DNA of 64,000 nt from Eledone cirrhosa (lineage: Eukaryota): the NCBI GenBank assembly GCA_964016885.1, contig OZ024744.1:89466001-89530000 (forward strand). Direction: 5' to 3'. This document shows positions 6,001 to 38,036 of this stretch, in pieces (positions within the stretch are counted from its first letter, which is position 1; each line of letters begins with the position of its first letter). The translations under genes and the position numbers were made by a program. A model generated the notes under the pieces. It had not been told where the DNA came from. It did not search any database and saw nothing but the letters and a program-made list of their open reading frames with translations.

Positions 6001-6109
6001 TGGTGGAAGGGCTGATGCCTTGGGCGTTAAGCAAAAATGTAGAGGCGAGAGTGGATGGTTTTAATTGTTTTGGTGTGTTGTTAATTTGTTTGTTTGTTAA
6101 TGGCAGCAA
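3089..6109 (-). CDS. LINE ORF2: AP endonuclease plus reverse transcriptase, uninterrupted 1006 aa
   Basis: APE motifs LTETHL, YRPP, GDFN, LDLIF, SDH; RT motifs NYRPISLTS, YLDFSKAFDRVDH, GVPQGTVLGPLLF, FADD; CR1-like C-terminus L.LYSLQRRRER. Track start is TTG. Confidence 0.95.
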   Translation of the reverse strand: MLPLTNKQINNTPKQLKPSTLASTFLLNAQGISPSTNTQKWKIKFLEDWIDVHPNHIPFFVLTETHLSNLHLEAEVKVKNFKAIRADRAGRRKGGTAIYVHNSFSTEAMNIFTNGYCEAVTVFSQTNNLLVVGLYRPPQTPVPCFKECLNSIKCFIQECHPDNILMMGDFNLPGVDWSTNTLPPGSSASTSDREAVESLLDFMDDFFLSQLVLEPTRCHKNVLDLIFSNHTDNIHNIAVEKTLLSDHDMVLCDLRFHRPIYKPNVISPVHPFDAMDFHNANWEAISHDLAHVDWSFTHTHTPTNIKKSWQTFVDTVTNICAKHTPLRTINKSKSRIPRNRKTLIRKIKRTNKKINKLKYCQQQHINLTAISSLEIKKHNLQNNIMSLINNQRRAEEAWAIEKIKLNPKVFFSFAKKHKITGSTVGPLIDENGTLQDNAKTMGEILQKQYCSVFSNPDMADLGCIGDVTPHYTLSDITFGAPDVLAAIKEIKHNSAVGPDRFPACVLKACQHQLASPLANLWRNSLDAGYVPENLLSQSVVPVFKKGNKSLAVNYRPISLTSHIIKVFERVVRSRMTHFLESNNMLNSNQHGFRNGRDCLTQLLHHFDDILRALGEGSNTDVIYLDFSKAFDRVDHNILLRKLSNIGVTGKLLQWIKSFLSNRTQHVVVEGVKSSPAKVSSGVPQGTVLGPLLFIIYINDITDIIKHSNIKIFADDSKLQKVINGVDDRISLQSDLLAVTQWAEKNNMLLNEDKFELIHFGKEDALKLPYSLPSGETLVASNNIRDLGVTVDSNISWTTHISSKVDMARRMCSWILRTFQSRDSRTIILLFSTFARPHLEYCCPLWSPHTKQSIMKLEAPQRAITKKIDGMSDLDYWGRLENLKLYSLQRRRERYIICMMWKMFHHHCPNDVGIAFKIHPRLGPRAIRPIQKSKSQLITTIRHNYFTSIGPALFNITPGHVKTETDHTRFKKSLDKFLQVIPDKPPTPGYVSANSNSLLEWAMVPKS

Positions 6110-7062
6110 TGGGAGTTTGTGCAGTGGGGTGATAGTGGAGGGTGGTGCTGGGTGATAGCTCGAATGTTTTTTTCCAGTTCTTTTGCCAGATTCATTATGG
6201 CTAAAAAAGAGGAAGAAGTTTCCTGTTTAGAAGACTGTTGGTGACTGTGGTAGTGGTTATTTTTATGTAGGTTATGGTTTTTGTTTTTGCTTTTATTTTT
6301 AATTTTATTTTCATTTATCCGACGGGTCCCCGGGAGATGGGTAAAGGGACAATCCCGGTCTAAACACAATCTGTCTCGCAGGGAAAAACGGCAGATTTGT
6401 GGATTCCTTGTTTGAGTTATTGGTGGTTGTGTTGGTGTTAAATTAGAGTATGTATTATGGTGGTGGCTGTTTGTGGGGATAGATCGTTTTGTCCTAGGTA
6501 AATGGGTGAATTTGCAGCCACTATCCGTACATATTCTATAGCGTAGAGAGTAGCGGCAAATGATGGGGTTTCGAGTGGGTGGGTATGTGGGTGTGGGTGT
6601 TGTGAGAGGTGTAGATGATGGTTTGGGTAGGATTTGATGACCTTTGTGGACTGTGGGAGGGAGAGTTCTTGTTCTGGTATTAGAAGGTAAATTCCTTGAC
6701 ATAGCAGTAGACAAAAATGTTGTAGTAGTAGTAGTAGTAGTAGGCAGAGATGTTGGCAGTGGTGATGATTGGACTGCTGGGCCAGAGAAAGGATGTGGCG
6801 TTTCATGCTGTGAGACAGAGGCTACTGGGGGGTCAATAGTTTCATTTAGTAGATCGGCCATTGTTGATGAATCAAGGAGTGGTTCACACTGTTGTTGTCG
6901 TTGTTGTTGTTGTTGTTGCTGTTGTTGTTGTTGTAGCTGTTGTTGTTGTTGTTGTTGTTGCTGTTGTAGCTGCTGTTGTTGTTGTTGCTGTTGTAGCTGC
7001 TGTTGTTGTTGTTGCTGCTGCTGGACAGCATTCAAAGAGAAAACACACCGTAGTTTATCCAA
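6097..7062 (-). CDS. LINE ORF1, 3' part: poly-Q, Pro/Thr-rich linker, two CCCH zinc fingers
   Basis: CRYSLRYRICTDSGCKFTH and CRFSLRDRLCLDRDCPFTH (C-x8-C-x4-C-x3-H); directly upstream of ORF2; true start lies in or beyond the gap. Confidence 0.7.
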   Translation of the reverse strand: MDKLRCVFSLNAVQQQQQQQQQLQQQQQQQQLQQQQQQQQQQLQQQQQQQQQQQRQQQCEPLLDSSTMADLLNETIDPPVASVSQHETPHPFSGPAVQSSPLPTSLPTTTTTTTTFLSTAMSRNLPSNTRTRTLPPTVHKGHQILPKPSSTPLTTPTPTYPPTRNPIICRYSLRYRICTDSGCKFTHLPRTKRSIPTNSHHHNTYSNLTPTQPPITQTRNPQICRFSLRDRLCLDRDCPFTHLPGTRRINENKIKNKSKNKNHNLHKNNHYHSHQQSSKQETSSSFLAIMNLAKELEKNIRAITQHHPPLSPHCTNSHCCH

Positions 7063-11569: not shown

Positions 11570-11919
11570 CAGGAGGTTGGACTGGTGTAAATCCTTGAAA
11601 GGTTTATTATACTATGATCATTTCAATGACCGGGTTCCATATGGATCCGGTGATATCATCAGGTATTCGAAATATAACAAAGGAATATATAATTATATTT
11701 CGAATACCTGATGATATCACCGGATTCATATGGAACCCGGTCATTGAAATGATCATAGTATAATAAACTTTTCAAGGATTTACACCAGTCCAGCCTCCTG
11801 TTATTTTATTTATAATAATTAACTCCGTATTAGCACCACCAACTACACAAACGAAGACGGGTGAACTGCACTACGTTGAGTACTCTCCATAATATTACAT
11901 CCAGATTGACCATACACAA
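11566..11919 (+). mobile_element. PLE pLTR fold-back 1: inverted arms 11566-11677 and 11693-11804, hammerhead on both strands
   Basis: Plus-strand motif 11704-11761: ATAC-CTGATGA-[stem II ACCGG..CCGGT, imperfect base]-GAA-ATGATCAT-A-GTAT; mirror copy on the left arm. Confidence 0.75.
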
Positions 11920-12845
11920 TTCTTCACTTAAAGAAGGAGAAGCAGCCTCATCTGTCGGTGAATAATCATCGTCAGGCGTGTGGGGTAGGGGTATGTTATG
12001 CGGTGGTAATGTTTCGGTGTGTGTGTTTGTGGTAGTGTTTGATGGAGTGGGATGGGATGGGGCTGTGTTCTTCAGGGGTGTTGTCTGTGTTTCTTCTGTT
12101 GTTGTTGGTTGAGTGGCTGTTTGTTTTGGTGTGTTTGCTCGTTTCGTCTGTTGTTGTACTTGTGGTGGTGGATGTTTTGGTGTTGGTGTTGGTAATAGTG
12201 TTGTTTTAATGATGTTGTTGTGGTGTGTTTGTGAATGACAGGAGACCTTTAGGTGTGTTGTGCTACCACAGCGAAAGCAATGAGGTTTACGCCCCTCCAC
12301 CAAAATGTTTATTTTGTTGTTGTCGTCGATGACGACTCTTTCGGGTATTTTGGAGATTCTCTCTGGCCTCATCTGTATCAGAATCCCCAAATCAGTACCC
12401 GCCCACCTTTGTCTAATAGACTTCCGTATCGAAAGAATAGCATCAGTCTCTGGCTCCACGAAGTCAGCCAAGATCCACCAGATGTTAATGTTTGGTGGTA
12501 TATTTTTTATTTTTATTTTTGTGTCCTTTTTCCCATGTACGTAGGGAAAAAGGTGAATGCTTTTGAGACCATTGGTGTCACAGAATGTTTTGGGGCGCGT
12601 GCCTCGCTTTTAAACAGTACGGAAATACTTCCGTACTGTCTTCCTCGTTGAAGAAAGTCAATATTTTCTAGAGTCTCCTTCAAGGTGGCTTCTATGTCTC
12701 CTTGACTCACAAATATTGGCTTTCTTGTTGTGTTTGAGACAGTCCTGAAGGTCACTGTCCTTCGAACCGTCTCTTCCTTTATTTCGAAGGGTGAGTTGAT
12801 TCTAAACCCACCCTTATCTTCGAAAGTTACAAATGTTCTCCCTTT
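11920..12845 (-). pseudogene. Tx1 copy A: internal ORF1 fragment of the same family as copy D
   Basis: Frameshifted ORF1 (TFRTVSN, PTYMGKRTQK, CFRCGSTTHLKVSC knuckle) closely similar to 26677..28272. Confidence 0.85.
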
Positions 12846-15800
12846 CGATGGTCGGCCCTATCGAATGCCTTTGACTGATCCAAATTTATCAGTGCCCCAC
12901 CGAAGCCGAGTTCACACCCCACCCTCTCTGCGATATATTGCATGAGGTGGAGGTTGTCGTGTATGGACCTGGTCGGGATTGCGAATGTCTGCGCTTCTCC
13001 ACCAGGTTTTCAACGACAAGCAGCAGCCTCTTTGCTAACACCTTGGCCAAAATCTGTGTTTAGCAGAGTTATGGGCCTGAAGTTATCTATGTCGTCCCCC
13101 TTGTTCTCGTCCTTCCTGACCAGCGTGACTACGCCCTTGGTCACAGAACTGGGAATTCTCCCGTTCTGCTGCCAGTTGCTGTAGACCGCTTCGGGGAAAC
13201 CGGAGAACAAGTCCGGCATTGCAACGTAAAATTCGTAGGGTAGACAGTCGAGACCTGGAGATTTGCGTTTTCCGCATTGGCTCAGCCCGTCCCCCATCTC
13301 AGCGGCCGAAATCGGCCTTTCGCAGAAATTCGCCTCCCCGTCCGAGAGTCGCGGCAGGCCGTCGAGGTATGGACTGAAATCCATAGCCCCTCCCGGCGCT
13401 CCACACTGCCCGAACAGTTGTGCAAAGTGCCGCTGGAAGGCCGCGCACATCTGCTTCGGTTCAAGTATCACGCGTCCGCCTTGGTCCTTCAAAGACCGAA
13501 TCGTGGACTTGTTGCCACTTTTTCCCTCCGTCACTCGGGCCCAGCTAACAGCTTTGGCTCCCTCGTTTCTCAGAGCACGTGTTTTACTCCTGACAACGCA
13601 GCCCTCGTGCTTTGCGTCGAAGAACTGGTCTAGGGCCGTTCTTGTCGCTAGCACGTTAGCTACGCTGCCACTCCTAATCGCCTCTTCTACTTTATCTACC
13701 AGTTCCTTTTCAGTCTTATTCCTATCTAACGCTAGTTCTCTAGTAAAGCCTATCAATTCTAATCTAATTACTCTCTTAAGAGAGCACCACCACCTGTTGT
13801 TGACAATTGCACCCGTCAAGTGCTGCTTAACTAAAGTGCTAATCTGACTACTGTATGCTTTACGTGTCGGTAACGACAGGTTCAGCTTCCAGTAGTCGGG
13901 TCCCTGCCTATGAGTTCTATCAAGGTTGACTACGCAGGTCACTAGTTTGTGATCTGAATAGGCAACCATGAACATGTGTGGACAACTTTATATGTCCCTA
14001 TCTCTATCTCTCATTAGAAACCTATCTAAGTACGATCTAGATGTCCCGCTACGGTTCGTCCACGTCCACAGTGGCGCAGTCGGGAAATCTAGTCGGTATA
14101 TATCGGCCATTTGAAATCGGCCGATTAAATATTTGAGACTGTTACACCCCCCTCTATCGGGGCATGCTCCCACATAATCCCAACGTGCATCTAGGATTCC
14201 ATTCCAGTCACCCACTAAAAGCAAGGAGCGGGACGTTTTCCGGATGGGGCATATACGGCCACCAGTCTGAAGGCTCCACCTTCACTACTGCTGACGTGTA
14301 GGACCACCAGTCGACCCTCCGGGTCCAGATGTACCGTCTGTGTCACGAGGTCCAGGTGTTTCCGCAGCAAAACAGCAACCCCGCCCCCACCTCTCAGCTG
14401 ACAGAGGGATACGTAGATCTCAAAGTCGTCGAAAATGGGGGCCAGCTGTCGCTCGCTGTGGATCCTGGACTCGCAAATGACTACCACATCCATAGGGTGC
14501 GACCTGAGATCGTTTAAGTGTTTATCCTGTTTCCCGGGCATCCCCAGGCCGCGCACATTCACACATCCGACTTTTATATTGGCCATGTTGGTGAGGAAGA
14601 GTTAGAAAAGAAGAGAAGAGAATTCACTTACCTCCTCGCTTCCTGAAGACCAGGCTGCACAATGTCCATGGGGGTGTTGGGGGGTTGTTTGGTAGGATGG
14701 TGGTTTCTGGCGGGGTCGGGACGGAGATGTTGGTGGAGAGGGTGTCTCGTGGGGTGGGGGTGTCTGGGGTGATGGTGGGGAAACATTTTAAAAGGACGCG
14801 GTTAATGGGTTTAACGCAAGGATTACCCACGTCCTTAGAAAAGTTTTTTCTTTAAAGATTTATAGGTGTCCGAGTGACCCTAATCATCTTTAAATTGGGT
14901 CTGTGTACACAGTTCGAAAAAGTTTTCCCTTCGGTTTTCACTGAAGGGTCGTTGGAGATGACCTCAATTAAAGTTTTGTTTTAGCTGTTTATGTATGTGT
15001 AATGTTCTTGTTGTGTTGTGTTGATTTTTGTATGTTGTTCTTGTGTGTGTTTTCGTTTTGTTGTAGGTGTTTGTGTTTGGAGTGTTGTTGTTGTTTTGTT
15101 TTCAAGAGAGAGGGTTGTTTGTAATGTTTGTGTTGTTTGTGTTGGTGGTTGTGTGTTTGTTGCCTTTTGTTCTTGTTATGTCTTTTTTTTTCTTTTGGAG
15201 CGGAGGGGTTCTCCCTCATCACTGAGTGATTATGAGGGGGGGGTCTCGTCCGTTGTGGTGTCTGTGTGATTGGAAATGGGTACGTTTTGGTGAGCGATTT
15301 TTTTTAGTTGTTTTAGGTGGGGAGGGGTGGGTTGAACTGTACTTGCAGTTTGGTTGTTTTGGTTATTTTTGTGTGTTGTTGTTGTTGTGGTGGTGGTGGT
15401 GGTGGTGGTGGTGGTGGTGGTGGTGGTGGTGGTGGTGGTGGTGGTGGTGGTGGTGGTGGTTGTGTTGCTGTCTTAGGTGTTGGCAGTAGTGCCTTTTCTT
15501 TTAAAACAGTTAGCTGAGGACAGGAAGCCGTCAGGTGACCACTGCTTAATCAGTGGTAACATGATGGCCGCCTACCCTCAACAGAAATGTTTATGTGAGA
15601 ATTTCCGTCTAGAGGCACACGTTGTGGTATTCTAGCTATCCGTTCTGGTCTCATTTGGACCAGAACTTCTAAGCTTGTACCGTTAAATATACCCCTGGAG
15701 GACTTTCTTACCGAAATCACTGAGTCTTCATCAAAATTGATGAAACCAGCTAATATCCACCAGATGTTTACATTTGGTGTGATATTTGTTATTTTTATTT

Positions 15801-16721
15801 TTTGCGTCCTTTTTCCCATATATGTGGGGGAAAAGGTGTAGAGAGTTGACACAATTGGTGACACAGAATATTTCTGTGCTGTCAATTGGTCTTTCATTAT
15901 TACCGATAAATTCCCGAAGAGTTTTCCCTTCTGTATGAAGGTAATAACATTCATGGAGTTTCTTAGAACCAGCTCAGTTTCATTTTGCGTTAATTGAGCT
16001 GGTTTTCTGGTGGTGTTTGAGATTGTCCTGAAAAATACAGTTTTTCAACGCAATTCTTGGGGAGAAGTGATGCTAAAAGCGCCATTCTGCCCCAAAGTTA
16101 CGTACTGCTTGGCATCTCTTAGTAGTTCTCTAGCATTAGAGATGTGAATTTGTTTATACAGTTCTGTCTTTTGGACAGTTTGTGCGAACGAAATTGTTTC
16201 TTTTTTTTTTTAGTTATTTTTGTTGGTGTTGTTGTCATCATTGTTGCTGTTGTTGGTGTTGGTGTTGTTGTCATCATTGTTGCTGTTGTTGTTGTTGCTG
16301 GTGCCGTTGGTTGTGTTGTTTTTGTTCATTGTTTCACACTTTTGTTTTTGATTTGTTGCCATGGCAACGTCAAGTTGTTGGTCAGCAAGTGAACAAAATC
16401 CTTCCTCTGGCTGACGTTTGTCTGAGACATCTGCTACTATGAGAGAGGAAAGGGGAAGCTGTAAGCATATCTTCCCCTTTCCTCCTTCGAATGTTGGTGA
16501 AGAAGCTTCAGCCATTTTTTTTTATGTTATCTTTTCCAAAAAAACTTTTTGTGAACTATTTCGCCTAAAGGCGTAGAATATTTTGAGAGACTGACCAGAT
16601 CAAAATATGACCGGGCAGTCCCTCTACAAATTGGTATAAAATTGAAGGTTTACAGTTAGGAATTTCTATAGAAATTTAGGCAGAACATACCCAGCAAATT
16701 TCACGCGTGTGTTCATCCCAA

Positions 16722-16723
<2 letters not shown>
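12846..16723 (-). mobile_element. Tx1 copy B: 5'-complete, decayed; ORF2 deleted downstream of the KAFDR motif
   Basis: ORF1 pieces 14.6-16.5 kb; ORF2 pieces 14215..14586, 13988..14224 and 13010..13975 (NVRGL, GDWN, YLDRF, SDH, NFRPITLLN) ending at GALINLDQSKAFDRADHR, fused to copy A. Confidence 0.9.

Positions 16724-16783
<60 letters not shown>
16724..16783. repeat. (GATA)n tract between Tx1 copies B and C
   Basis: About 15 units. Confidence 0.98.
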
Positions 16784-16997
16784 TTCTTTATTTACCATAA
16801 AGGCATAAAAAGAAGGGACAAATACAAAGGGGGAGTTTACATATAATCGAGTAAAAAGGGTGTAACATGAAAATAATCGAAAATAACCTCAAAAGGGAGG
16901 GGACGTGATGGGGGTTGCACACACCCCCGAAAAAGTGTGCAATCCTTTGCCCGGGGAGCACATGGAGAAGGTGCTCCCCTCTCCTTCACTTCTTTAC

Positions 16998-19900
16998 CTA
17001 CAGGATGATATACAGAGAAGGCCCATTTACACGAGCCATTCTCGCCACTATCACCCACCTTTCATAAAACTGCCTGTGGCCAAGCACCTCTCTCTCCATT
17101 CTTATCCTTCTTCCGAAGTGATATCGGAAGAAGTAGACCAGACTATGGCCAGAGAGGAAGTTGCCTGACCTCAGACCTTTCAATCGTGTCCACCAAACAA
17201 CCTCTTTCAACATGGCTATTACGCACAGAAAAACCGCCTTTGCTTCCTTTGTGAAGAGGGGAGGCGGTTTGATTGTCATCACGGACTCGGCGGTCAATTT
17301 AATCGGCGCCACCCGCGACAGCAGTTGTTCGGCGTAGCCCCACAGATCAGCCACGCCCGGACATTGCACCAATGCGTGCGCCACGGTTTCTTCGTGACGC
17401 ACGCATCTAGGGCAAATCTTTTTTGAGGGATCCCTGCCCGGGCGCCCGTGTCTGTAGAGCCTCTCTCGAACGGGTAGAGCCCCTCGGTAGCACTGCCAGG
17501 CCAGTGACTTCTGGAAGTTGTCCATTGGTCCTGGGCCGAAAGTCCTACCGAACAGGCTGGCCAGTTCGTCTTCTTCCATGTCCAGCGACTCTCCAAGGGT
17601 GTCATCGCCCCTGCTAGCCACCAGCCCTCTATAGAATGATGAGGTGGATTCTCCACCGATGGCCCGGCCCGCTTGCCAGAGAGCCCTGAGCGCCTGAGCA
17701 CACTCAGTGTGCCAGTCTCCCAGTTTTCCGGATCTTTGCTTGACCCAGGACTGTAGCTCGGTGAGTGAGACGAGTCTCGGAAAGGCTCGTTTCACGAACG
17801 GAGCCCACACCGGTTGACCAGTGAGGAATACCTGTAGGTGCCGTAGCCTTAATGCGTGCCTACGCATCATCAACCACGGCATCCCCAGCCCTCCTTTCGA
17901 AGGTTGTTGGCAGCAGATGGATCTTCTCACCATAGGAGGACGCTTCTTCCAAAGAAATTGGAAGAGCATGCGTTCCATGGTGGTGAGTGTTTCCTTAGGG
18001 CAAGGCACGACAGTCAGGCGGTAGTAAGTGACGGACGCTATGTAAATGTTCGCCACCTCCGCCCGGCCTTTTAGGGACAGCTTACACTTGGCCCATTTCT
18101 GGGTTAGTGCAAACACCTTGTTCGTAACCTCGTTCCAGTTCTTTTCCACCTGGAGGTCCGGTCCAAACCAGACCCCAAGCAACTTTACCGGGCCCTCCGT
18201 CCAGTGTCCGACGACACCGTCAGGAGGCATCGGTTTGCCTCTCCACGTTCCGAGTTGCAGCCCGATGGATTTTTCCCGGTTCAGTTTCGCTCCTGACAAC
18301 CTTTCGTACTCCTCCAGTAAGGTACCGATCGCCTCGATCTCCGAGTCGGTTGATACCATTACTGTTACGTCATCGGCGTAGGCCGACACCGCTTTGCTCA
18401 ATCCTGGTTCCAGGGGGATACCCTGCAACAACTCCAACTTCCTCAGTAAAGGCTCGAGAGTCAATACGTACAGAAGAGAGGAGAGAGGGCACCCCTGTCG
18501 AATGGATCGTGTGATTTCGAACGGCTTCGAAAGGTAGCCGTTCACCTTGATCCTAGAACAGATGTGGTTGCTATGTAGGGCAGTGATCCAGCCTCTGAAA
18601 ACAGGACCGAACCCAGCCGCCGCTAGCACCGCATCCAGGTAACCATGGTCGACCCTATCGAAGGCCTTAGACTGATCCAAGTTGATCAGGGCCCCACCGA
18701 AGCCGGGTTTGTTGCCAACCCTCTCTATGATGTATCGCATGAGGTGGAGGTTATCGTGAATGGACCTGGATGGGATAGCACATGTCTGCGCATCTCCCAC
18801 CAGGCCACCCACGACAAGCGCCAACCTCTTTGCTAACACCTTGGCCAAAATCTTTAACTCTGTGTTTAGCAGGGTTATGGGCCGGAAATTATTTATACTA
18901 TCCCCCTTGTTCTCGTCCTTCCTCACCAGCGTGACTACGCCCTTGGCTACAGAACAAGGAATTCTCCCGTTCTGCTGCCAATTGCAGTAGACCGCTTCGA
19001 GGAGTTCGGAGAAGAAGACCGGCATTGCTAAATAAAGTTCGTAAGGTATACCATCGAGACCTGGAGATTTGCGTCTGCTGCATTGGCTCAGCGCATCTCC
19101 GATCTCATCAGCCGAGATTGGTCCCTCGCAGGACTCTGCCTCTTTGTTCGAGAGACGCGGCAGGCCGTCGAGGTATGGACCGAAATCCACGCCCCGGCCC
19201 GGACCCTCGCCTCCCCCGAACAATCGGGCAAAGTGCTTTTGAAAGGCCTCGCACATCTGCTTAGGCTCCCGGATCACTCGTCCATCTTCGTCTTGCAACG
19301 ACCGGATGGTGGATCGATTTCCACTTTTAGCTTCTGTCACGCGGGCCCATCCAACGGCTTTGGCCCCCTCATTACCTAGAGCACGTATTTTACTTCGAAT
19401 GACGCAGCCTTCATGCTTTGCATCGAAAAACTGGTTCAAGGCCGTCCTCGATGCCAGCACTCTGGCCACATCTTCGCTCTTGATTGCCTCTTCTAATTTA
19501 CCTGTTAATTCTTTCTCGTTTCTATTCCTATTGGCAGCTAACATCTTGCTATAACTTATTGATTCTGTTCTAATCTCTCTTTTGAGAGATGCCCACCATC
19601 GGTTGTTGACGATTGCACCCGTCAACCTCTCCTTAACTAATCTGCTAATCCGGTTTCTGTAAGTCTCTTTTGCCGGTAAAGACAAATTAAGTTTCCAGTA
19701 ACCGGGACCCTGTCTATGTGTTTTCTCGAGATTGACCACGCAGGTCACTAATTTGTGATCCGTGTAGCCAACCGTGCGCATTTCTGGACAGCTTAATATG
19801 TCCCTATCCTTACTTCTAACTAAGAATCTATCTAAGTACGATCTAGATTGACCACTGTGGTTTCTCCAAGTCCAGGTAGGCACAGTTGGAAAATCTAGTC

Positions 19901-20435
19901 GATATCTATCGACCAAGTTAAAACGGTCGAGTAACCCCTTGAGGCTGTTACACCCCCCTCTATTAGGACATGCTCCTGCATAGTCCCAACGTGCATCCAG
20001 GATGTCATTCCAATCCCCCGCTAGAAGCAGGGAACGCGACGTTCCCAGAAAAGTCTCCAAACGCTGGAAGAAGTCGGGCCGTTCAGCTCCGAAAGGGGAG
20101 TAGACGGCGACCAGTCTCAAGGCCGCACTTTCACTACTGCCAACGTCTAGCACCAACAAACGACCCTCCGGGTCCGAGTGCACAACCTGTACGGCAAGAC
20201 CCAGGTGTTTTTGCAGCAGCACGACAACCCCACCCCCACCTCCAGGTTGACAGAGAGATGCATGCACTTCAAAGTCATCGAAGGTGGGGGCCAGCTGCCG
20301 CATGACGCTGATTCGAGTCTCACAGATAACCATTACATTTATACTACATGACCTGAGGTCATTTAGAAGCTTTGCTTGCTTCCAAGTTGAGCCCAGGCCA
20401 CGTGCATTCAAACATCCTACTCTTAACACATCCAT
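16998..20435 (-). CDS. Tx1/L1-clade ORF2: APE, RT and C-terminal CCHC, 1145 aa
   Basis: LNARGL, ICETR, GDWN, YLDRF, TDH, GPGYWKLN, NFRPITLLN, LDQSKAFDRVDH, IRQGCPLS, YADD, CPRC-x8-H-x4-C. Confidence 0.96.
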   Translation of the reverse strand: MDVLRVGCLNARGLGSTWKQAKLLNDLRSCSINVMVICETRISVMRQLAPTFDDFEVHASLCQPGGGGGVVVLLQKHLGLAVQVVHSDPEGRLLVLDVGSSESAALRLVAVYSPFGAERPDFFQRLETFLGTSRSLLLAGDWNDILDARWDYAGACPNRGGCNSLKGLLDRFNLVDRYRLDFPTVPTWTWRNHSGQSRSYLDRFLVRSKDRDILSCPEMRTVGYTDHKLVTCVVNLEKTHRQGPGYWKLNLSLPAKETYRNRISRLVKERLTGAIVNNRWWASLKREIRTESISYSKMLAANRNRNEKELTGKLEEAIKSEDVARVLASRTALNQFFDAKHEGCVIRSKIRALGNEGAKAVGWARVTEAKSGNRSTIRSLQDEDGRVIREPKQMCEAFQKHFARLFGGGEGPGRGVDFGPYLDGLPRLSNKEAESCEGPISADEIGDALSQCSRRKSPGLDGIPYELYLAMPVFFSELLEAVYCNWQQNGRIPCSVAKGVVTLVRKDENKGDSINNFRPITLLNTELKILAKVLAKRLALVVGGLVGDAQTCAIPSRSIHDNLHLMRYIIERVGNKPGFGGALINLDQSKAFDRVDHGYLDAVLAAAGFGPVFRGWITALHSNHICSRIKVNGYLSKPFEITRSIRQGCPLSSLLYVLTLEPLLRKLELLQGIPLEPGLSKAVSAYADDVTVMVSTDSEIEAIGTLLEEYERLSGAKLNREKSIGLQLGTWRGKPMPPDGVVGHWTEGPVKLLGVWFGPDLQVEKNWNEVTNKVFALTQKWAKCKLSLKGRAEVANIYIASVTYYRLTVVPCPKETLTTMERMLFQFLWKKRPPMVRRSICCQQPSKGGLGMPWLMMRRHALRLRHLQVFLTGQPVWAPFVKRAFPRLVSLTELQSWVKQRSGKLGDWHTECAQALRALWQAGRAIGGESTSSFYRGLVASRGDDTLGESLDMEEDELASLFGRTFGPGPMDNFQKSLAWQCYRGALPVRERLYRHGRPGRDPSKKICPRCVRHEETVAHALVQCPGVADLWGYAEQLLSRVAPIKLTAESVMTIKPPPLFTKEAKAVFLCVIAMLKEVVWWTRLKGLRSGNFLSGHSLVYFFRYHFGRRIRMEREVLGHRQFYERWVIVARMARVNGPSLYIIL

Positions 20436-20468
20436 GTGGGCGGCAGAGCCAAAGGAGAGTGTAGAGAC

Positions 20469-22350
20469 CTACCTTTCCGCTTCCCGGGGTTCGGGTTGCA
20501 CGACTTCCATGGGGTCGGGGGTGTTGGGTGAAGGGGTGTCTTGTGGTGGTGTGGGGTCGTCGGTGTGTGGTGGGGTTGGGGTGTTTGGAGTTGTGTTGGG
20601 GAGGGGAAGGGGAGGGGGAAAGCTTTTTAGTAGGACGCGGTTTATGGGTTTGACAGAGGGTGGTCCTACGTCCTCCTTAAAATCCTTTTTTAGTTTTTGG
20701 TAGAGGTTCATTGGGATTTTTATTAGTTTTAAATGTGGGTGGTTTTCTGATGAAACAAAGTTTACACCTTCGGTTTGTACCGAAGGATTATTGTATATGA
20801 GTTCATTTAATTTATTATTGTTTCTGTTGATGTAAGTATAGTGTAATGTCTTTTTTTCCGATGGTGTGAGTGTTTCGAAGAGGGGAGGGGCAGGTTTGGT
20901 TTTGTTTGTTGCTGGAGGGGTGTTTTCTGTTTTGTTAGATTGTGTTGCGATTTGGGTGGGGGTTGTTTGTCCTTGTGTGTTTTGCACATGTTTTCTTTTT
21001 TTTCCTTTTAATCTGTCTGAAGGACTCCGTTTCTTCCTCCGAATTCGTTGGGTTATCTTCAGTGTTGGAGGGAAGAGGTATGTTTGCTGGTAATGTTTCC
21101 GTGTTGGATTTCTTTGTGGGGGAGATGGATGTCACTATGTTAGACTGTGTTGTGTGTTGTGTCTGCGGTGGTTGTGTTGTTTTATTGAGTGAGAGGTTGG
21201 GTGGGCCTGTATTTTGTTTTGGGGTAATGTGTTGTGACTGTTTGTGTTGTGGTGGTGTTGTGGTGTTACTGAGGGACGGGTTGGGTGGGACTGAGTTTTG
21301 TTGTTTGTTTATCTGTTGTGGTGGTGGTGGTGGAGCTGGTGTTGGTAGCAGAGTTTTCTTTTTGTTGAGTTGTGGACAAGCGGCCTTCAGGTGCCCTCTG
21401 CCTGCACAGATATGGCAGGACGGCCTTCTCCCCTCCACGCTAATGTTTATATACCCGTGGTCCTCTAATAGGATTCTGTCGGGTATTTGGGCGATGCGTT
21501 CAGGCTTCATTTGTACTACCAGCTCTATACCTGTTCCACTGAACGCATTGCCTGTGGTTTTCCCAATGGAAATCACGTTGTCATTCACTGGATCGATGAA
21601 GCCAGCTATGAGCCAGCAGTAGTCCACATCTGGCATCATTGCATCCAGCCATATGCGTTGAGTTTTTTTTCCCATATAAGATGGATAAAAGGTGAAATTT
21701 TTCGAACGAATCGGTGACAAAGCACATTTTTTTGCCGCCGATTCGTTCTTCATGATAATTGCTAGGCTTCCATACAGTCTGTCTTTTCTTATGAAAGTTG
21801 TTTCATTCAGTACTTCTGCGAGTACTGTTTTGATATCTGCTTGAGAAGGCTGTTCAGGTTTTTTTGTACTGTTGTTGATGGTCCGAAACTTGACCGTTCG
21901 GCTTTCAATGTCTTTCGTGAATTCTTGAGGCATTTTTACCAATAAAATACCATTCTCACCTTCACTTATGTATTGTTTTGCGTCCGTGATCCTTCGTACC
22001 ACATCTGAAATGTTTTCCGCTATATAAGTCAAAGATTTCTTTGTTTTCTGTGCAAAAGAAATCTTGTCGTCTGCTTTGTTTTCTGATATGATGTTATTTT
22101 CAACTGTTATTTTTTTGTTTGTTGTGTCTTTGTTTGTGTTATTAGTATTGTCATGCAATTTTTCAAATTTTTTTTTTTCGTTGTTTTCGTCATTTAATTT
22201 TTTTTCCTCCGCAGATTCGTCCGTTTTTATTTTCATTTTTCCTTCCTTCTCTATGACGTTAGTTGGGAAGGAAGGGAGGACTAAAGCGTGCGAGCTTACA
22301 ACTCTTACCGCTGTCCCCCCACCACTATTTTCGTTCGCTGCGTTTAACAT
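20469..22350 (-). CDS. Tx1 ORF1 (gag-like, CCHC knuckle), split by a one-base slip in an A8 run near 21000
   Basis: 20935..22350 (CHICAGRGHLKAAC) plus 20469..20987, whose VKPINRVLLKxFP motif is shared with copies B and D. Confidence 0.85.
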
Positions 22351-22583
22351 TTCTGTTAGACGATTGAAATTTTTTACACAAAATTTTTTAAAACAGGTTT
22401 TTCACCTCTATGAGGGGTAAAGATGAGCTAACCCACCGCCTGACAGTTCAGACGGAGGGTCAAGCTACACAATTGTATCAAAATTAAGTTTGAACTCACA
22501 AAATTTCCTCAATAAATTTGAACAAAACTTCTGTGCGAAGTGAATGACATCCACACTGTAGAACAGACGACAGCTAGATTATA

Positions 22584-22605
22584 TAGATAGATAGATAGAT
22601 AGATG

Positions 22606-22692
<87 letters not shown>
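22584..22692. repeat. (GATA)n tract between Tx1 copies C and D
   Basis: About 27 units. Confidence 0.98.
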
Positions 22693-25600
22693 TTCTTTAT
22701 TATCCACAAGGGCGCAACAAGAAAAGGGGACAATACAAAGACATGCCGGGGATTTTACATACAGTCGTGTAAAAAATATAAAAACAAACAATTACAACAA
22801 TCGAAATCCCCAATAGGGGGGAGGCGCCACAAATGGGTTGTTTAATACCCCGTCGATAGAACAACCCTCAACTCCAGGAGCGTGTTGTGCAAGTGCTCCT
22901 TTCTTCCTTTTGCTCACTTCCTCAACCTACAGGCTTATAAAAAGAGAAGGCCCAATCACTCGGGCCATTTTTGCTTCATTCACCCACCTTTCAGTAAATT
23001 TACTGGGGTGCAGTGCCTCTCTCTCCAACCTGATTCTCCTTCTAAAGTGATACTTAAAGAAGGGAATCAATTGTTGTCCGGAGAGAAAGGCATCTGTCTT
23101 CAGTCCTCTCAACCTCGTCCACCATATAACTTCTTTCACCATAGCCACCGTACAGAGGAAAACCGCCTCTCTTTCGTTTTTGAAAGAGGCTGGCGGTTTG
23201 ATCCTTACTATGGACTCGGCAGTCAACTGAATTTGTCCCATACGCGACAGCAGTTGTTCTGCATAGTTCCACAGGTCAGTTACGCCCGGGCAGTGTACAA
23301 TTGCATGCAGGAGGTTTCAATGTCCTGCCCGCATCTTGGACACGTCCTATTGGAAGGATCCCTGCCGGGGCGTCCGTGCCTGTAGATCTTGTCACGAACC
23401 GGTAGAGCTCCTCGGTAGCACTGCCAGGCCAGGGACCTCTGGAAGTTGTCCATAGATCCCGGGCGGAAAGTCCTACCAAATAGACTGGTGAGCTCATCGT
23501 CTTCGACGCCCAGAGTCTCTCCGAGCACGTCGTCGCCCTTGTAACGTACAATCCCTCTATAGAATGTCGAAGTGGAGTCGCCACTGATTGCTGCGCCCAC
23601 TTGCCAGAAGACTGTGAGCGCCTGAGCGCATTCAATGTGCCAGGCGCCCATCGTTTTCGGTCTTTTCTTGACCCAGGACTGCAGCTCCGCCAGCGAGACG
23701 AGCTGTGGGAAAGCCTGTCTCACAAACGGTGCCCACACCGGTTGGGGGTCGGTGAGGAATACCTGGAGATGCCGCAGCCTCAGCGCATGTTTGCGCATCA
23801 TCAGCCACGGCATTCCCAGCTCTCCGTTTGAAGAGTGCTGACAGCAGACGGATCTCCTCACCAGCGGAGCCTGCTTCTTCCACAGAAACTGGAAGAGCAT
23901 GCGTTCCATGTTGGCGAGGTGTTGACGGGGACAAGGCACGACAGTCGAGCGGTAGTAGATGACGGACTCTATGAAAGTGTTCGCCACCTCCGCTCGTCCT
24001 TTCAAGGACAGTTTGCACTCTGCCCACTTCTGGGTGAGTGCAAACATCTTGGCCGTGACCTCGTTCCAGTTTTTCTCCACCTGGAGGTCTGGACCGAACC
24101 AGACCCCGAGCAATTTCACCGGTCCGTCCGTCCAGCGTCCAACGACGCTGTCGGACGTCATCTGTTTGCCTCTCCACGTACCGAGTTGCAAACCGACAGA
24201 CTTGTCCGGGTTTAGTTTTGCTCCCGTCAGCGTTTCGTATTCTTTCAGTCAGTTGCCGATCACCCCGATTTCCCAGGTGCTCGACACCATTACTGTCACG
24301 TCGTCGGCATTAGCCGACGCCGCTTTGCACAGTCCCGGTTCTAGAGGGATTACCTGCAACAGCTCCAATTTCCGCAGTAGTGGCTCTACAGTCAATACAT
24401 ACAGAATGGAGGAGAGAGGGCACCCCTGTCGAATGGAATGCGTGATTGCGAACGGCTCCGATAGGTAGCCGTTCACTTTGACCCTCGAGCAGATGCTGGT
24501 GTGCATCGCCTCGATCCATCCTCTGAACACGGGACTGAAACCGGCCGCCTTGAGAACCGCTTCCAAGTATCGATGGTCGTCCCTATCGAATGCCTTAGAC
24601 TGATCCAAGTTGATCAGAGCCCCCACCTCTCTATGATGTATCGCATGAGGTGGAGGTTGTCGTGTATGGACCTGGTCGGGATTGCACACGTTTGCGCTTT
24701 CCCTACCAGGTTCTCAACGACAAGCGCAAACCTCGTCGCTAGCACCTTGGCCAAAATCTGGCCAAACTCTGTGTTGAGCAGAGTTATGGGCCTGAAGTTG
24801 TTATTCCGTCCCCCTTGTTCTCGTCTTTCCTGATCAGCGTTACTACGCCCTTGCCTGCAGAACTAGGAATTATCCCGTTCTGCTGCCAATTGCAGTAGAC
24901 GGCTTCGAGGGCGCCAGAGAACAAGTCCGTCATGCCTATGTAAAACTCGTAGGGTAGACCATCTAGACCGGGTGACTTGCGTTTCCCGCAGCGGCCCAGA
25001 GCGTCCCGTATCTCAGCGTCCGTGATCGGTCTTTCGCCGAACTCGGCGTCCGTGTTCGAGAGACGCGGCAGGCCGTCGAGGTATGAACTAAAGTCCATTT
25101 CCCCGTTCGGCTCACCGTCGTTCTGCTCAAACAGACGCGCAAAGAGCCACTGAAAGGCCGCGCACATTTGCTTGGGGTCAAGTAGCACGCGTCCGTTTTG
25201 GTCTTTCAAAGACCGAATCGTGGACTTGTTGCCACTTTTTGCCTCCGCCACTCGGGCTCAGCTGACAGCTTTCGCTCCTTCGTTTCCTAGAGCACGTGTT
25301 TTGCTTCTGACCACGCAGCCTTCGTGGTTCGCATCGAAGAACTGGTCCAGTGCCGTTCTCGACGCTAACACTCTAGCCGCGTTTCCACATCTAAGTGCCT
25401 CCTCTACCTTGGCTATTAGTTCTCATTCTATTCTGTTTTTCTCTAAGGCTAACTCTCTGCTATACCCTATCGATTCTATTCTAATTGCTTTCTTGAGAGA
25501 GTACCACCATCTATTGTTGACGATGGCTCCCGTTAACTGTTGCTTGACTAGTCTACTTATCCGTTCACTGTAAGCTTTACGTGCCAGCAACGACACGTTC

Positions 25601-28483
25601 AGCTTCCAGTATCCGGGACCCTGTCTATGTATTCTATCACGGTTGACTAAGCAGACGACTAACTTGTGATCTGAATAGGCAACCATGTGCATTCGTGGAC
25701 AGCTTAACATCTCCTTGTCCCTTTCTCTGATGAAGAACCTATCTAAATACGATCTAGATGTCCCACTGCGGTTTGCCCACGTCCACTGTGGTGCAGTTGG
25801 GAAATCCAGTCGATACCTATCGGCCAGTTGGAATTGGCCGATTAAAGTTTTGAGGCTGTTGCACCCCGCTCTACTGGGACATGCTCCCACATAGTCCCAT
25901 CGTGCATCTAGGATACCATTCCAGTCCCCCACTAAAAGTAAAGAGCGAGACGTTCCCAGAAAAGATTTTAGACGCTTAAAGAAGTCTGACCGTGATTGCG
26001 ATTGCCCAGTCGAGGCATAAACGTCCACCAGTCTGAAGGCTCCACCTCCAATACTGTTCACGTCTAGGACTACCAGTCTACCCTCCGGGTCCAAGTTTAC
26101 TTGCTGTACTTCGACGTCCAGGTTCTTCCGAAACATGACAGCCACTCCACCTCCACCTCCTGGCTGACAGAGAGATGCGTAGATCTCAAAGTCGTCGAAG
26201 ATGGGGGTTAGTTGCTGCCTGTTGTGGATCCTGGACTCGGTGATGGCTATCACATCCATACTGTGTGACCTAAGGTCGTTTAAAAGTTGGCCCTGTTTCC
26301 AGGGCATCCCTAGGCCACGCACATTCACAGTTCCAACTCGTAAACTAGCCATGTTGGTGACGAAAGGTGCACTTACCTTTTCGTTTCCTAGAGATCGGGT
26401 TGTTCAATCTCCATTTGGGTGCTGGATGGGGTGTTGGGTGGGGTGGGGAAGCATTTTAACAGGACGCGGTTGATGGGTTTGTGGCAGGGGTTGCCCACGT
26501 TCTGTGAAAATTTATTTTTTAGGTCATTATAGGTTTCCATAGAAACCCTTATAAGTTTAAGGTGTGGAGACGATTCTGCCTTGACGAAAGTTTTGCCCTC
26601 CATCTCCACCTTGGGGTTTTGGGAGATGACCTCCATCAAACTCTTGTTGTTTGTGTTGATGTATGCGTATTGTTGTTTACGTTTTTTGTTGTGTTGTTTT
26701 AGTTTGTTGTTCGTCCGGGAGTTTTCTTTTTATGGTGGGTGTTTGTGTTTGGGGTGGTGTTGGTGCTGGTTTTGCTGATAGGGGGATGTTTGACTGTGGT
26801 GTTGTTTGTGTTGTTTGTGTCTGTGGTTGTGTGTTGGTGTTGGTGATTGGAGTTTTGGGTGTTTTGAGGTGTCTCTTTTTTTGTTTTTTAGATTTCCGCG
26901 GTTCTCCCTCTTCTTCACTTAAAGAAAGAGAAGCAGCTTCATCCGTCCATGAAGAATCATCGTCAGGTGTGTGGGGTAGAGGTATGTTGTGTGGTGGTGG
27001 TGTTTCGGTGTGTGTGTTTGTGGTAGTGTTTGATGGAATGGGATGGAGTGGGGCTGTGTTCTTCAGGGGTGTTGTCTCCGTTTTTTCTGTTGTTGTTGGT
27101 TGAGTGTCTGTTTGTTTTGGTGTGGTTGCTCGTTTCGTCTGTCGTTGTACTTGTGGTGGTTGTTTTGGTGTTGGTGTTGGTAGTAATGTTTTTTTAATGA
27201 TGTTGTTGTTGTGTGTTTGTGGACAAGAGGCTTTTAGGTGTGCTGTGCTACCACAGCGAAAGCAATGAAATTTTCGTCCTTCTACCGAAATGTTTATTTT
27301 GTTGTTATTAACGACTCTTTCGGGTATTTTGGAGATTCTCTCCGGTTTCATTTGCAACAGAATCTCCAAATCTGTACCCGCCCACCTTTGTCGAATAGAT
27401 TTTCGTATCGAAAGAATCATATCAGTTTCTTGCTCTACGAAGCCAGCCAAGATCCACCAGATGTTAATGTTTGGAGGTATGTTTTTTATTTTTATTTTCT
27501 GTGTCCTTTTTCCCATGTATGTAGGGAAAAAGGTGTATGCTTTTGACACCATTGGTGTCACAGAATGTTTTTGTGTGAGTGCCTCGCTTTTAAACAGTAC
27601 GGAAACACTTCCGTACTGTTTTCCTCGCTGGAGAAAATTGACATTTGCTAGAATTTCCTTGAAAGTATCTTCTATATCTGCTTGGTTAACAAATGTCGGC
27701 TTTCTTGGGGAATTTGACACAGTCCTAAAGGTGACTGATCTGCTAATTGTGTCTTCCTTTATTTCAAGGGGTGAGTTAATTCTAAACCCACCTCTTTCTT
27801 CGAAAGTTACAAATTTTCTCCCTTGCTGGAGCATATCTCTTGCGTTGGAGATATCAAGATTTATAAAATCTTGTTTTTTGTTCACTGTTTCAGCGAAAGA
27901 CATTTTCTTTTTTTTGTGTAGTGTTGCTGTTGTTGTTGTTGTTATCGTTGTTAGCCTCGGTGTTGGAAATCTCAGTTCCTTGTCGAGGTGAAACATTATG
28001 TGTAGATGTATCTGTAGAGTTGTTGATGTCTTTTTCATGTGTATGTATGTTAATGGGTTTAATTCCTGTGTTTTCCTGTGTGTTATTGTTATTTTTCTCC
28101 ACTTTGACGGTAGAAATTTTAAAATCTTCAAGTGGTAATACTTTTTTTTTTCTTTGTTGACAGTCGTATCTATGGCGACGTCCATAGTAGCAGAAGCAGA
28201 TATAACGTTAATATCTGCCTCTTTCTCTCTCTTTTCTCTATTAACGTTCTCCAGTGTTCTTGTGTTGCTCAAGTTATTTAGTTTGTAAAATCTGATATTT
28301 TAAAACAAATTTTTAAAATAAAATGTTCGCCCCTGCAGGGGCGAAAAATGGGATTACCACCCAGCTGACAATTCGGCTTGGGGGTTGATCTACAAAATGC
28401 TGTTTTTTCAAACAATTAGTTCGTTTTTTTTTTTGTATAGAAATTAACAAAAAAGCTTACCGGCGATGTTCCACGCGTCAGAC
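22693..28483 (-). mobile_element. Tx1 copy D: full-length, multiply disrupted
   Basis: ORF1 26677..28272 plus 26388..26639; ORF2 pieces 25423..26352, 24784..25251, 24249..24689, 23280..24191 and 22927..23241; AATAAAGAAA(TCTA)n end. Confidence 0.93.
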
Positions 28484-28495
28484 AGAAAGAGAGAG

Positions 28496-28599
<104 letters not shown>

Positions 28600-28880
28600 T
28601 TATTTGTCACTAGGGCGTCAAAGAGTGGGACAGGTACAATGGGGGAGTTTACATAAAAAGACGTCCTCAATAAGGAGGAGGCAATAACAAAATATAAAAA
28701 TATAAGATATAAAATAAATTGAATAACAAAATCCTCAATAGGGAGGAGGCGCCTTGGGTGCAACCCTTCTCCTCAGGAGCACAGAGAGAGGATGCTCCCT
28801 TGATCTTTCATCTTTCTCACCTACAGTCTGATGTAGAGTGAAGGCCCATTCACACGGGCCATTCTCGCCACTTTCATAAA
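28600..28880 (-). mobile_element. Tx1 copy E: heavily 5'-truncated 3' end, same family as F
   Basis: Last ORF2 codons (KVARMARVNGPSLYIRL*) and a 3' UTR similar to 28927-29240; (GATA)n on both sides. Confidence 0.9.
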
Positions 28881-28923
<43 letters not shown>

Positions 28924-28926
28924 TAT

Positions 28927-30379
28927 TTCTTTTATTTGCCACTAGGGCATCAAAAGTGGGACAAGTACAAAGGGGGGAGTTTACACAAAAAGGCGTCCTC
29001 AATAAGGAGGAGGCAATAACAAAATATAAAAATAAAATAAGATATAACAAAAAATAAAATTTTTAACAAAATCCTCAATAGAGAGGAGGCGCCTTGGGGG
29101 GTCGCACACACCCCCGAAAAAAGTGTGCAACCCTTCTCCTCAGGAGCACAGAGAAGGGGTGCTCCCTTGGTCTTTCATCTTCCTCACCTATAGTCTGATG
29201 TAGAGTGAAGGCCCATTCACACGGGCCATTCTCGCCACTTTCACCCATCTTTCATAGAAACGGCTGGGGTGCAGCACCTCTCTCTCCATCCTGATCCTTC
29301 TTCCGAAATGATATCGGAAGAAACGGACCAGTTGTTGGCCAGAGAGAAAGGTGCCCGACCTCAGTCCTTTCAGACGCGTCCACCATACAACCTCTTTCGC
29401 CATGGCTATTACGCACAGAAACACCGCCTCTGCTTCATCTTTGAAGGGGGGAGGCGGCTTGATCATTACAATAGACTCGGTGGTCAACCGGATCGGTCCC
29501 ACCCTTGACAGCAGTTGTTCGACATAGCCCCACAGATCGGCTACGCCCGAGCAGTGTACTAATGCGTGTGCAACGGTTTCCTCGTCGCACACGCATCTGG
29601 GACAGATCTTTTTGGCGGGGTCCCTACCCGGGCGCCCGTGTCTGTAGAGCCTTTCTCGAACGGGTAAAGCCCCTCGGTAGCACTGCCAGGCCAGGGACTT
29701 CTGGAAGTTGTCCATAGGTCCCGGGCTGAATGTCCTACCGAACAGGCTGGCCAGTTCGTCCTCCTCCATGTCTAGGGCTTCTCCGAGGGCGTCGTCGCAC
29801 CTGCTGCGTACCAGCCCTCTATAGAATGTTGCGGTGGAGTCTCCACTGATAACCGGATCCGCCTGCCAGAGGGCGGTGAGCGCCTGGGCACACTCAGTGT
29901 GCCAGGAGCCCAGTTTTCTCGGTCTTTGCTTGACCCAGGATTGCAGCTCGGTGAGTGAGACGAGTCTGGGAAAGGTTCGTCTCACAAACGAGGCCCACAC
30001 CGGTTGTCCGGTGAGGAATACGTAGAGGTGCCGTAGCCTTAATGCGTGTTTATGCATCATTAGCCACGGCATCCCCAGCCCTCCTTTCGAAGGGTGTTGA
30101 CAGCAGATGGATCTCCTCACCATAGGAGCCCGCCTCTTCCAAAGGAATTGGAAGAGCGCGCGCTCCATCTTGGTGAGGGTTTCCCTTGGGCAGGGCACTA
30201 CGGTCAGGCGGTAGTAGATGACGGACGCTATGTAGGTGTTCGCCACCTCCGCCCGACCTTTCAGGGATAGTTTGCAACTGGCCCACTTCTGGGTCAGTGC
30301 AAACACCCTGTTCGTAACCTCAGCCCAGTTTTTCTCCACCTGGAGGTCCGGTCCGAACCAGACCCCGAGCAACTTCACC
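28927..30379 (-). mobile_element. Tx1 copy F: 5'-truncated, ORF2 C-terminal 396 aa open (29188..30378)
   Basis: VKLLGVWFGPDLQVEKNW...CPRC; (GATA)n at 28881-28922 and 30380-30405. Confidence 0.93.
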
Positions 30380-30548
30380 TAGATAGATAGATAGATAGAT
30401 AGATAGGGCGAATTTCAGAATACGTGCGTTTATATCAAATTCGTGCACATACCTAACCCTAATTATAAACATACAATTACATATTCCCGCCACCGTATCT
30501 GTTAATATATATTTTTACTATATATGTATATATGTGGTTATCTTTATC

Positions 30549-36810: not shown

Positions 36811-36820
36811 TAACAACAAC

Positions 36821-36908
<88 letters not shown>

Positions 36909-36909
<1 letters not shown>

Positions 36910-37990: not shown

Positions 37991-37999
37991 AAGAATAAC

Positions 38000-38035
<36 letters not shown>

Positions 38036-38036
<1 letters not shown>

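Follow-up and report, generated by a model that had tools for sequence, protein, structure and literature searches.

The excess of ORF1 protein (ORF1p) over ORF2 protein (ORF2p) made from one RNA of a long interspersed nuclear element (LINE; ORF, open reading frame) is usually ascribed to inefficient translation of ORF2. Copia-type elements make their structural protein alone from a spliced RNA, the unspliced RNA being the genome, a division of roles that is only predicted for the element described here. For the plant copia element EVD, the cited sections of one study describe a conserved donor that is of greater importance than the acceptor and serves splicing as well as blocking premature termination of the unspliced RNA (PMC5580714). 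Human L1 belongs to the same clade as the present element; according to the cited parts of two reports, its RNA has a conserved donor in the 5′ untranslated region (5′UTR), and spliced as well as prematurely polyadenylated forms are common (PMC2896524, PMC5860796). Here, a stretch of 64,000 nucleotides (nt) from Eledone cirrhosa (GCA_964016885.1, contig OZ024744.1, positions 89,466,001 to 89,530,000), in the following called the window, was analyzed. It carries a full-length L1-clade LINE, element C, and several relatives on the minus strand. A preliminary description of this DNA had started from the premise that L1/Tx1 LINEs are unspliced, which is too strong, since splicing and premature polyadenylation of human L1 RNA are widespread in the part of the work cited (PMC2896524). 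Comparison of the subfamilies indicates that a site with the consensus of a 5′ splice site (donor) on the stop codon of ORF1 is real, selected, and beyond chance. It is tentatively proposed, with somewhat less than even confidence, that a fraction of the transcripts is spliced from this donor and loses ORF2 as an intron.

By the tested features, the element is an L1-clade retrotransposon of the non-LTR type (LTR, long terminal repeat). A profile search with ORF2 of C gave PF03372 (33.2 bits, cut-off 24.5) and PF00078 (95.2 bits), and its C-terminal cysteine-rich domain matched PF13966 (zf-RVT, E 7.9e-6) with 26.9 bits, below the cut-off of 27.5. The closest solved structure is human L1 ORF2p (E 1.5e-50, residues 8–855), and R2 proteins followed with E 2e-20 or weaker. 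ORF1 is separate, encodes 633–695 amino acids (aa) and contains one CCHC knuckle; the tails are simple repeats, (TCTA)n or (ATT)n, and 5′-truncated copies such as E and F occur. The label Tx1 is presumed here, as in the preliminary description; no named Tx1 reference was among the protein matches. The closest named protein stems from Argonauta hians (63% identical). Recent octopus LINEs include L1-Tx1 families (PMC13282606); the main text of that work contains neither “splic” nor “intron” nor “orf1”, and no match of the present subfamilies to named families was found.

Further copies, together with matches to the Argonauta protein, yielded nine subfamilies, labeled here C, D, B, B2, F, K, G, H, and J. 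A search of the same genome for deeper lineages with a 40%-identical relative gave only G/H and D types (30 loci of 150); 28 of these 30 loci belong to the G/H lineage, which is abundant and young, with a full ORF2 in many copies. The family of C is also young: an exact pattern recovered at least 1,418 3′ ends genome-wide, 150 of 150 scored matches were 99–100% identical at the ORF2 end, and many copies have full open frames. At 4-fold degenerate (4-fold) sites of ORF2, G/H/J and C/D/F/K are 49–55% identical, and by eye no relationship is apparent between the ORF1 C-termini of G/H and those of C/D. B, D, and C had been described as three diverged families, but they are not independent lineages, the 4-fold identity being 0.70 for C and F and 0.69 for D and B; E/F is also near C. 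Mosaic elements (L195 and L196) were observed as well: in J, a 5′ part of its own precedes a 3′ end of G type, whereas the 5′ part of H2 is of H type and its 3′ end is distinct.

A donor consensus on the ORF1 stop

The three donors (C, D, and B) and the four TAG stops followed by G (C, D, E, and F) of the preliminary description were recovered letter for letter at the positions listed in Table 1. In D, a TAG that lies in frame four codons ahead of the ORF1 stop and was suspected to be a mutation is private to the window copy; CAG is present in 29 of 29 other D copies. The donor is more widely conserved than the preliminary description could show: in an alignment anchored on the site, five positions do not vary in 9/9 subfamilies, namely G at −1, +1, and +5 and T at +2 and +6. 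Outside this core, a single column (−14) is invariant among the other 56 from −30 to +31. Positions +3 and +4 are always purines and −2 is variable, the alternation of A and G at +4 leading to the stop TAA or TAG. The G at +7 is near-invariant (8/9 subfamilies), and one imperfect B2 copy reads GTGGGT. Wherever the end of ORF1 is readable (C, D, H, H2, and F), the donor overlaps the final Arg codon and the stop; +1 is the Arg wobble base, and +5 and +6 are non-coding. With 74/275 4-fold sites invariant across eight ORF2s, the probability that three free donor positions stay fixed is ∼0.02.

The strength of the site was ranked by the energy of the duplex with the 5′ end of U1. Among 259–311 GTs, the donor takes first place in D, G, K, and F and second place in C (2/299) and H, i.e., one of the top two ranks in 6/6 full elements, and we infer that it is bound by U1. 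A few sites of similar U1 strength also occur on the antisense strands; it is therefore the position together with the conservation which counts for the donor. Distant L1/Tx1-like relatives from metagenomes (80 loci with 46 distinct usable ORF2s) had G-stop-GT at 0/21 automatically called ORF1 ends and TAG followed by G at only 1/41 ORF2 ends. A donor as a general feature of Tx1/L1 elements is hence not supported, and the site is, as far as sampled, specific to this LINE clade.

Such a site might be bound by the U1 small nuclear ribonucleoprotein and seldom or never be cut. It would then keep premature polyadenylation down in the A-rich ORF1 and aid the passage of the intronless RNA through nuclear processing, the TAG|G at the end of ORF2 being inherited without function; this explanation is regarded as only slightly less probable than the excision of ORF2. 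There are 1–6 AATAAA per element in 5′UTR and ORF1 and none in ORF2, and one lies 315–348 nt upstream of the donor in 5/6 reference copies, but these counts match the base composition (expected 2.2–4.3), the hexamers code for Asn-Lys or Ile-Asn, and among the five hexamers upstream of the donor, that of G is part of an insertion private to the G copy. The gap between the ORFs is the only non-coding place for the site, where any stop codon provides +2 to +4 for free, and U1 at the donor of EVD represses premature termination of the unspliced RNA in the cited section of PMC5580714.

The motif could also be kept for a reason other than U1, e.g., as a termination-reinitiation signal for ORF2, a DNA-binding site or an RNA contact, with an accidental likeness to a donor. 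This is considered unlikely. The position 24–41 nt ahead of the ORF2 ATG and the near-invariant +7 G would suit such a role, for which human L1 offers a precedent, its donor at +97 being conserved as part of a RUNX3 site according to the cited part of PMC5860796. However, both the invariant positions and the tolerated changes (purines at +3/+4, variable −2) follow the donor consensus. In addition, the frame between ORF1 and ORF2 differs by family (in frame in C, overlapping in −1 in D, closed in B), so that neither readthrough nor frameshifting is what has been conserved, and both were rejected as a link between the ORFs.

Candidate acceptors and a second intron-like pair

For the excision of ORF2, the donor on the ORF1 stop would be joined to the G behind the ORF2 stop (TAG|G) or, in G/H, to a predicted acceptor in the 3′UTR, giving an mRNA for ORF1 only. 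TAG|G ends ORF2 in 8/10 3′-end types (C, D, F/E, K, M, N, O, and H2). The rule that ORF2 stops with TAG followed by G holds for all four window copies but is not universal in the clade, as G and H end with TAA. This G/H-type TAA makes up 38/136 classed ends in a non-random sample with some places counted twice. Free use of other stop codons, combined with an unconserved donor, had been named as what would speak against an intron; the large, young G/H lineage shows the former in part, and the donor is conserved. In the protein tree, H2 with TAG|G is sister to G/H (99/99), and C/D lies across the deepest split. As TAG|G is thus found on both sides of this split (C/D and H2), it is probably the ancestral state, and TAA probably arose by a single loss.

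Conservation of the acceptor above chance is not supported, and descent alone could give it. Across C, D, H2, K, and F, third positions of Lys/Glu/Gln codons are invariant at 32/68 and 4-fold sites at 87/291, from which neutral retention of TAG and the +1 G has a probability of 0.47 × 0.30 = ∼0.14, which is not significant. Acceptors were ranked by a home-made simple pyrimidine score in place of a trained model. Among the downstream AGs, the AG of the stop ranks 1/262 in K, 5/254 in C (43 AG-free nt upstream, copy L033), and 6/274 in D, and only 20/257 in F; a second AG lies 7 nt upstream of it in D and E/F. The TAA of G/H, the neutral estimate, the simple score, the low rank in F, and the competing AG all weigh against splicing at the ORF2 stop.

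For G/H, the nearest AG past the stop is poor (rank 50–55). A T-rich CAG located 160–191 nt into the 3′UTR (L191, L193, and L194) has rank 2/262 with 64–84 AG-free nt before it, and it looks like a relocation of the acceptor after the loss of TAG. The weight of this observation is lessened by the relocation being a single event and by some O and N copies which also have a YAG in a U-rich 3′UTR. Elsewhere, YAGs in the 3′UTR are absent from C, K, F, and M, weak in D, moderate in N and O (single copies), and at +49 in H2. Since +3 to +6 are variable at the ORF2 stop, the idea that a further donor or a recursive site is generally present there was rejected. As a separate observation, the 3′UTR contains hairpins (window 16979–16953 and homologs), the stems of which differ between families yet pair, and which are candidate recognition elements of the reverse transcriptase (RT); splicing to the CAG of G/H would also remove them.

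A further intron-like pair in the 5′UTR of D, B, and C (minus strand, Table 1) had been missed in the preliminary description. Its donor lies ∼30 nt from the 5′ end in D and B/F and at approximately +70 to +80 in C and K, and the acceptor, a pyrimidine tract ending with YAG, follows 90–130 nt past the donor. By the same score, the AG of this acceptor has rank 1 among 369–390 AGs in C, D, and K (C: 1/369, copy L033). It is situated inside a conserved hairpin, whose loop varies but ends with YAG in the TCTA-tailed types shown, while the counterpart loop in H is without AG. The UTR hairpins had no match near threshold to a known RNA or ribozyme in Rfam. ORF1 is thus bracketed like an internal exon, though the hairpin may be the selected feature, which would agree with a role of these motifs apart from U1.

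If the sites bound U1 for protection, the second donor near the 5′ end would act likewise, and it would fit that the donor on the ORF1 stop is kept in every lineage and the stop acceptor is not. However, the top-ranked acceptors in the 5′UTR and at the stops of K, C, and D and the new acceptor in the 3′UTR of G/H would be left unexplained. Together with the donor on the ORF1 stop, the 5′UTR pair would turn ORF1 into the second of three exons of an ORF1 mRNA. In such a three-exon gene, the intron of the 5′UTR and the ORF2-sized intron would leave together, and only the wholly unspliced RNA would make ORF2p and transpose; the arrangement would be kept by selection, with the acceptor relocated in G/H. 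This extended model, read from the arrangement of the sites, is rather unlikely to hold in full.

Processed copies and predicted products

Processed ORF1-only copies had been predicted as a trace of the spliced RNA. A genome-wide search for C, D, B2, and G/H types, the patterns of which left out the exon/donor sides of F and K, found none. A C-type 3′UTR following a purine-rich exon end occurred 0 times, against 1,418 3′ ends, and the exon end at the C donor was never (0) directly followed by the start of the 3′UTR. For B2, C, and D, the donor is intact in 92 of the first 100 listed exon ends, and 8 of ∼1,131 exon ends deviate at both +5 and +6. These eight comprise small indels, one break-off into unrelated sequence and the D copy L210; none is joined to the 3′UTR. 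In G/H, of which the total was uncounted, 13 and 8 deviating matches are small indels or one microhomology deletion into ORF2, and none reaches the 3′UTR. An unbiased scan of 213 loci of the same genome revealed 60 deletions of at least 40 nt, 25 of them being one artifact of an insertion in the G reference copy; 0 had exact GT..AG ends and none was longer than 2.5 kb. The processed-copy patterns were exact, so that diverged copies are missed, and the B2/C/D pattern overlooks any junction that has G at +5 or T at +6. Contigs of four sequencing runs of unrecorded type, aligned to window 16800–22450, had no joint of 20473 to 16997 among 15 of 156 joints, a result that speaks neither for nor against splicing.

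These negative results count against an excision of ORF2; the spliced RNA of C, D, F, and K would keep the 3′UTR hairpins as a possible RT recognition site, so that some copying in trans would be expected. They exclude a spliced RNA that is both abundant and copied in trans with any notable frequency. Splicing as such is compatible with them in view of the precedent of Drosophila copia, whose spliced RNA is ∼10 times as abundant as the full-length RNA with no genomic read of the spliced form in the cited part of the study (10.1101/2023.05.27.542554). A U1 site which is seldom or never cut would account for the absence of processed copies of any kind in the C, B2/C/D, G/H, and 5′UTR searches and in the unbiased scan.

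Copies spliced in the 5′UTR were not found either (0), which also counts against splicing. Seven deviating D matches are point changes or a small duplication, compared with an estimated 220 D 5′ ends (1,131 × 62/100 × 6/19). Among 19 sampled D copies, the pair is intact in 13, truncated in 5, and unclear in 1, and 21/21 C 5′ ends have it intact. The missing 5′UTR-spliced copies weigh more, because such an RNA carries ORF2 in cis and human L1 leaves spliced copies at a level of ∼2% of the full-length copies, as given in the cited part of PMC5860796. The 5′UTR intron is either rarely removed or removed together with ORF2.

The copy L210 (1500–1530) is deleted from the donor to a YAG at codon 28 of ORF2, one G short of an exact splice, and bears other deletions. 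A splice of the donor to YAG|G at this codon would take out ∼120 nt and fuse ORF1 in frame to ORF2 minus its first 27 residues. The YAG is invariant in 8/8 aligned full-length ORF2s and matches the donor in phase, but 28 YAGs are equally invariant and this one is without a pyrimidine tract. The deletion of L210 shares AGGT at both ends, and 0 exact copies were found among ∼1,131, although this RNA would encode RT in cis. The product would also lose the first endonuclease strand with a conserved Asn, for which a role is presumed from human L1. A splice to codon 28 is accordingly regarded as very improbable.

Under the proposed excision of ORF2, the unspliced RNA would be the form that transposes, and the spliced RNA would raise ORF1p over ORF2p; strict cis-preference or low abundance would keep the spliced RNA from being copied into the genome. 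As in EVD, U1 on the unspliced RNA would probably also guard against premature polyadenylation, so that excision and U1 protection can coexist. ORF1p would be the same whether spliced or not in C, E/F, and K (0 added codons) but not in D and G/H, where it would be extended. For D, the preliminary description gave an addition of LRK, but the early stop behind it is a mutation private to the window D; in a full D copy, 27 codons would be added, and the spliced ORF1p of G/H would gain ∼19 residues (read by eye). Both extensions argue against a product that is unchanged by splicing and thereby against the proposal.

The element array and comparison with known systems

The related elements F, E, D, C, and B form a head-to-tail run on the minus strand, spaced by (TCTA)n (Table 1). 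The families insert head-to-tail into one another’s microsatellite tails (window 11,900–30,400; copies L047 and L050). B, C, D, F, and K have (TCTA)n tails and G, H, and H2 have (ATT)n tails, which suggests a change of the target repeat within one clade. The 5′ ends of C adjoin TCTA-type repeats in nearly all of the 21 shown and those of G/H adjoin ATT runs; tail and target are indistinguishable in these places. ORF2 of B is joined directly to a D-like ORF1 fragment (12854–11920) at 12848–12854, probably by a deletion across two tandem elements. Outside the window, a G-family element in an ATT run (L192:540–840) lies right after an apparent host exon donor, the coding sequence being transporter-like by eye.

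Table 1. Positions of the array elements, their parts and the putative splice sites in the window.
Feature	Position	Strand	Remarks
Element C, full-length L1-clade (Tx1-like) LINE, ∼5.8 kb	16781..22579	−	98.4% identity with copy L031 over 5,804 nt
Putative 5′UTR intron of C	22408..22499	−	GT at 22499, AG ending 22408; weak donor, strong acceptor inside hairpin
ORF1 of C, CCHC knuckle	20469..22350	−	Frameshift in window copy; other C copies open, ∼633 aa in intact copies
5′ splice-site (U1) match over last Arg codon and stop of C ORF1	20467..20474	−	GT at 20472
Inter-ORF spacer of C, pyrimidine-rich, 33 nt past stop	20436..20468	−	Sequence poorly conserved
ORF2 of C, intact, 1,145 aa, AP endonuclease, RT, zf-RVT-like; candidate intron body	16998..20435	−	
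YAG|G at ORF2 codons 27–28 of C	20353..20355	−	In frame with donor; without pyrimidine tract
Candidate acceptor on C ORF2 stop	16997..17020	−	TAG|G at 16998
3′UTR of C	16786..16997	−	Purine-rich start, hairpin 16979–16953, U-rich tract, AATAAA at 16791
Microsatellite (TCTA)n separating C and B, tail / target	16724..16783	−	
Element D, ORF2 frameshift-broken	22696..28481	−	5′UTR donor GT 28460, acceptor 28333; ORF1-stop donor 26376; ORF2 26352–22927 (TAG|G at 22927)
Element B, without 3′ part	12848..16719	−	5′UTR donor GT 16690, acceptor 16565; ORF1 ATG 16515; ORF1-stop donor 14631; ORF2 from 14586
Element E, 5′-truncated: ∼60 nt of ORF2 and 3′UTR	28600..28880	−	TAG|G at 28821
Element F, 5′-truncated	28925..30378	−	TAG|G at 29188, competing CAG 7 nt upstream

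Further repeats were observed in the window. A separate LINE at 3089–6226 (minus strand) has an open endonuclease/RT frame of 1,045 codons and a 10-bp repeat tail and is only 23% like ORF2 of C. Another LINE type at 33533–39839 (plus strand) consists of RT-bearing frames, which are repeated and broken up by (AAT)n runs. A GC-rich tandem repeat of 79 bp is located at 47975–49181 (15.4 copies, 93% matches), and two short frames at 50722–51532 (plus strand) have translations with a putative resemblance to a Tc1/mariner transposase.

Among the titles and abstract openings surveyed, no excision of ORF2 in a LINE was reported; supplements, Repbase-type reports, and subscription journals were outside the scope. 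The splices described for human L1 in the cited parts of the literature lead from the 5′UTR to the 5′UTR or ORF1 and leave ORF2, yielding dead ends or an ORF2-only RNA (SpORF2, SpIREs). Unlike the present candidate, human L1 has no described donor on the ORF1 stop and no described excision of ORF2 in these parts (PMC2896524, PMC5860796).

The element resembles the Ty1/copia elements with a subgenomic gag RNA (EVD and Drosophila copia) in that a U1-type donor is conserved at the end of the structural gene. Unlike the present LINE, copia elements belong to the LTR class and have a single gag-pol frame, and in EVD a short intron is spliced, followed by early termination; here, a LINE with two ORFs has the donor on the stop of ORF1 itself, and ORF2 in its entire length of 3.5 kb is the candidate intron. 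Thousands of copies, many of them with an intact ORF2, make up these young families, for which exact junctions are predicted. If there is no excision, a selected U1 site in an element that is intronless and highly active would still bear on the escape from premature polyadenylation and silencing. If excision of ORF2 takes place, it would be a second solution to the ratio of ORF1p to ORF2p, convergent with copia, and the host could regulate splicing at this point. If the three-exon model is true, a LINE would have independently evolved the switch between spliced and genomic RNA that is known from copia and retroviruses.

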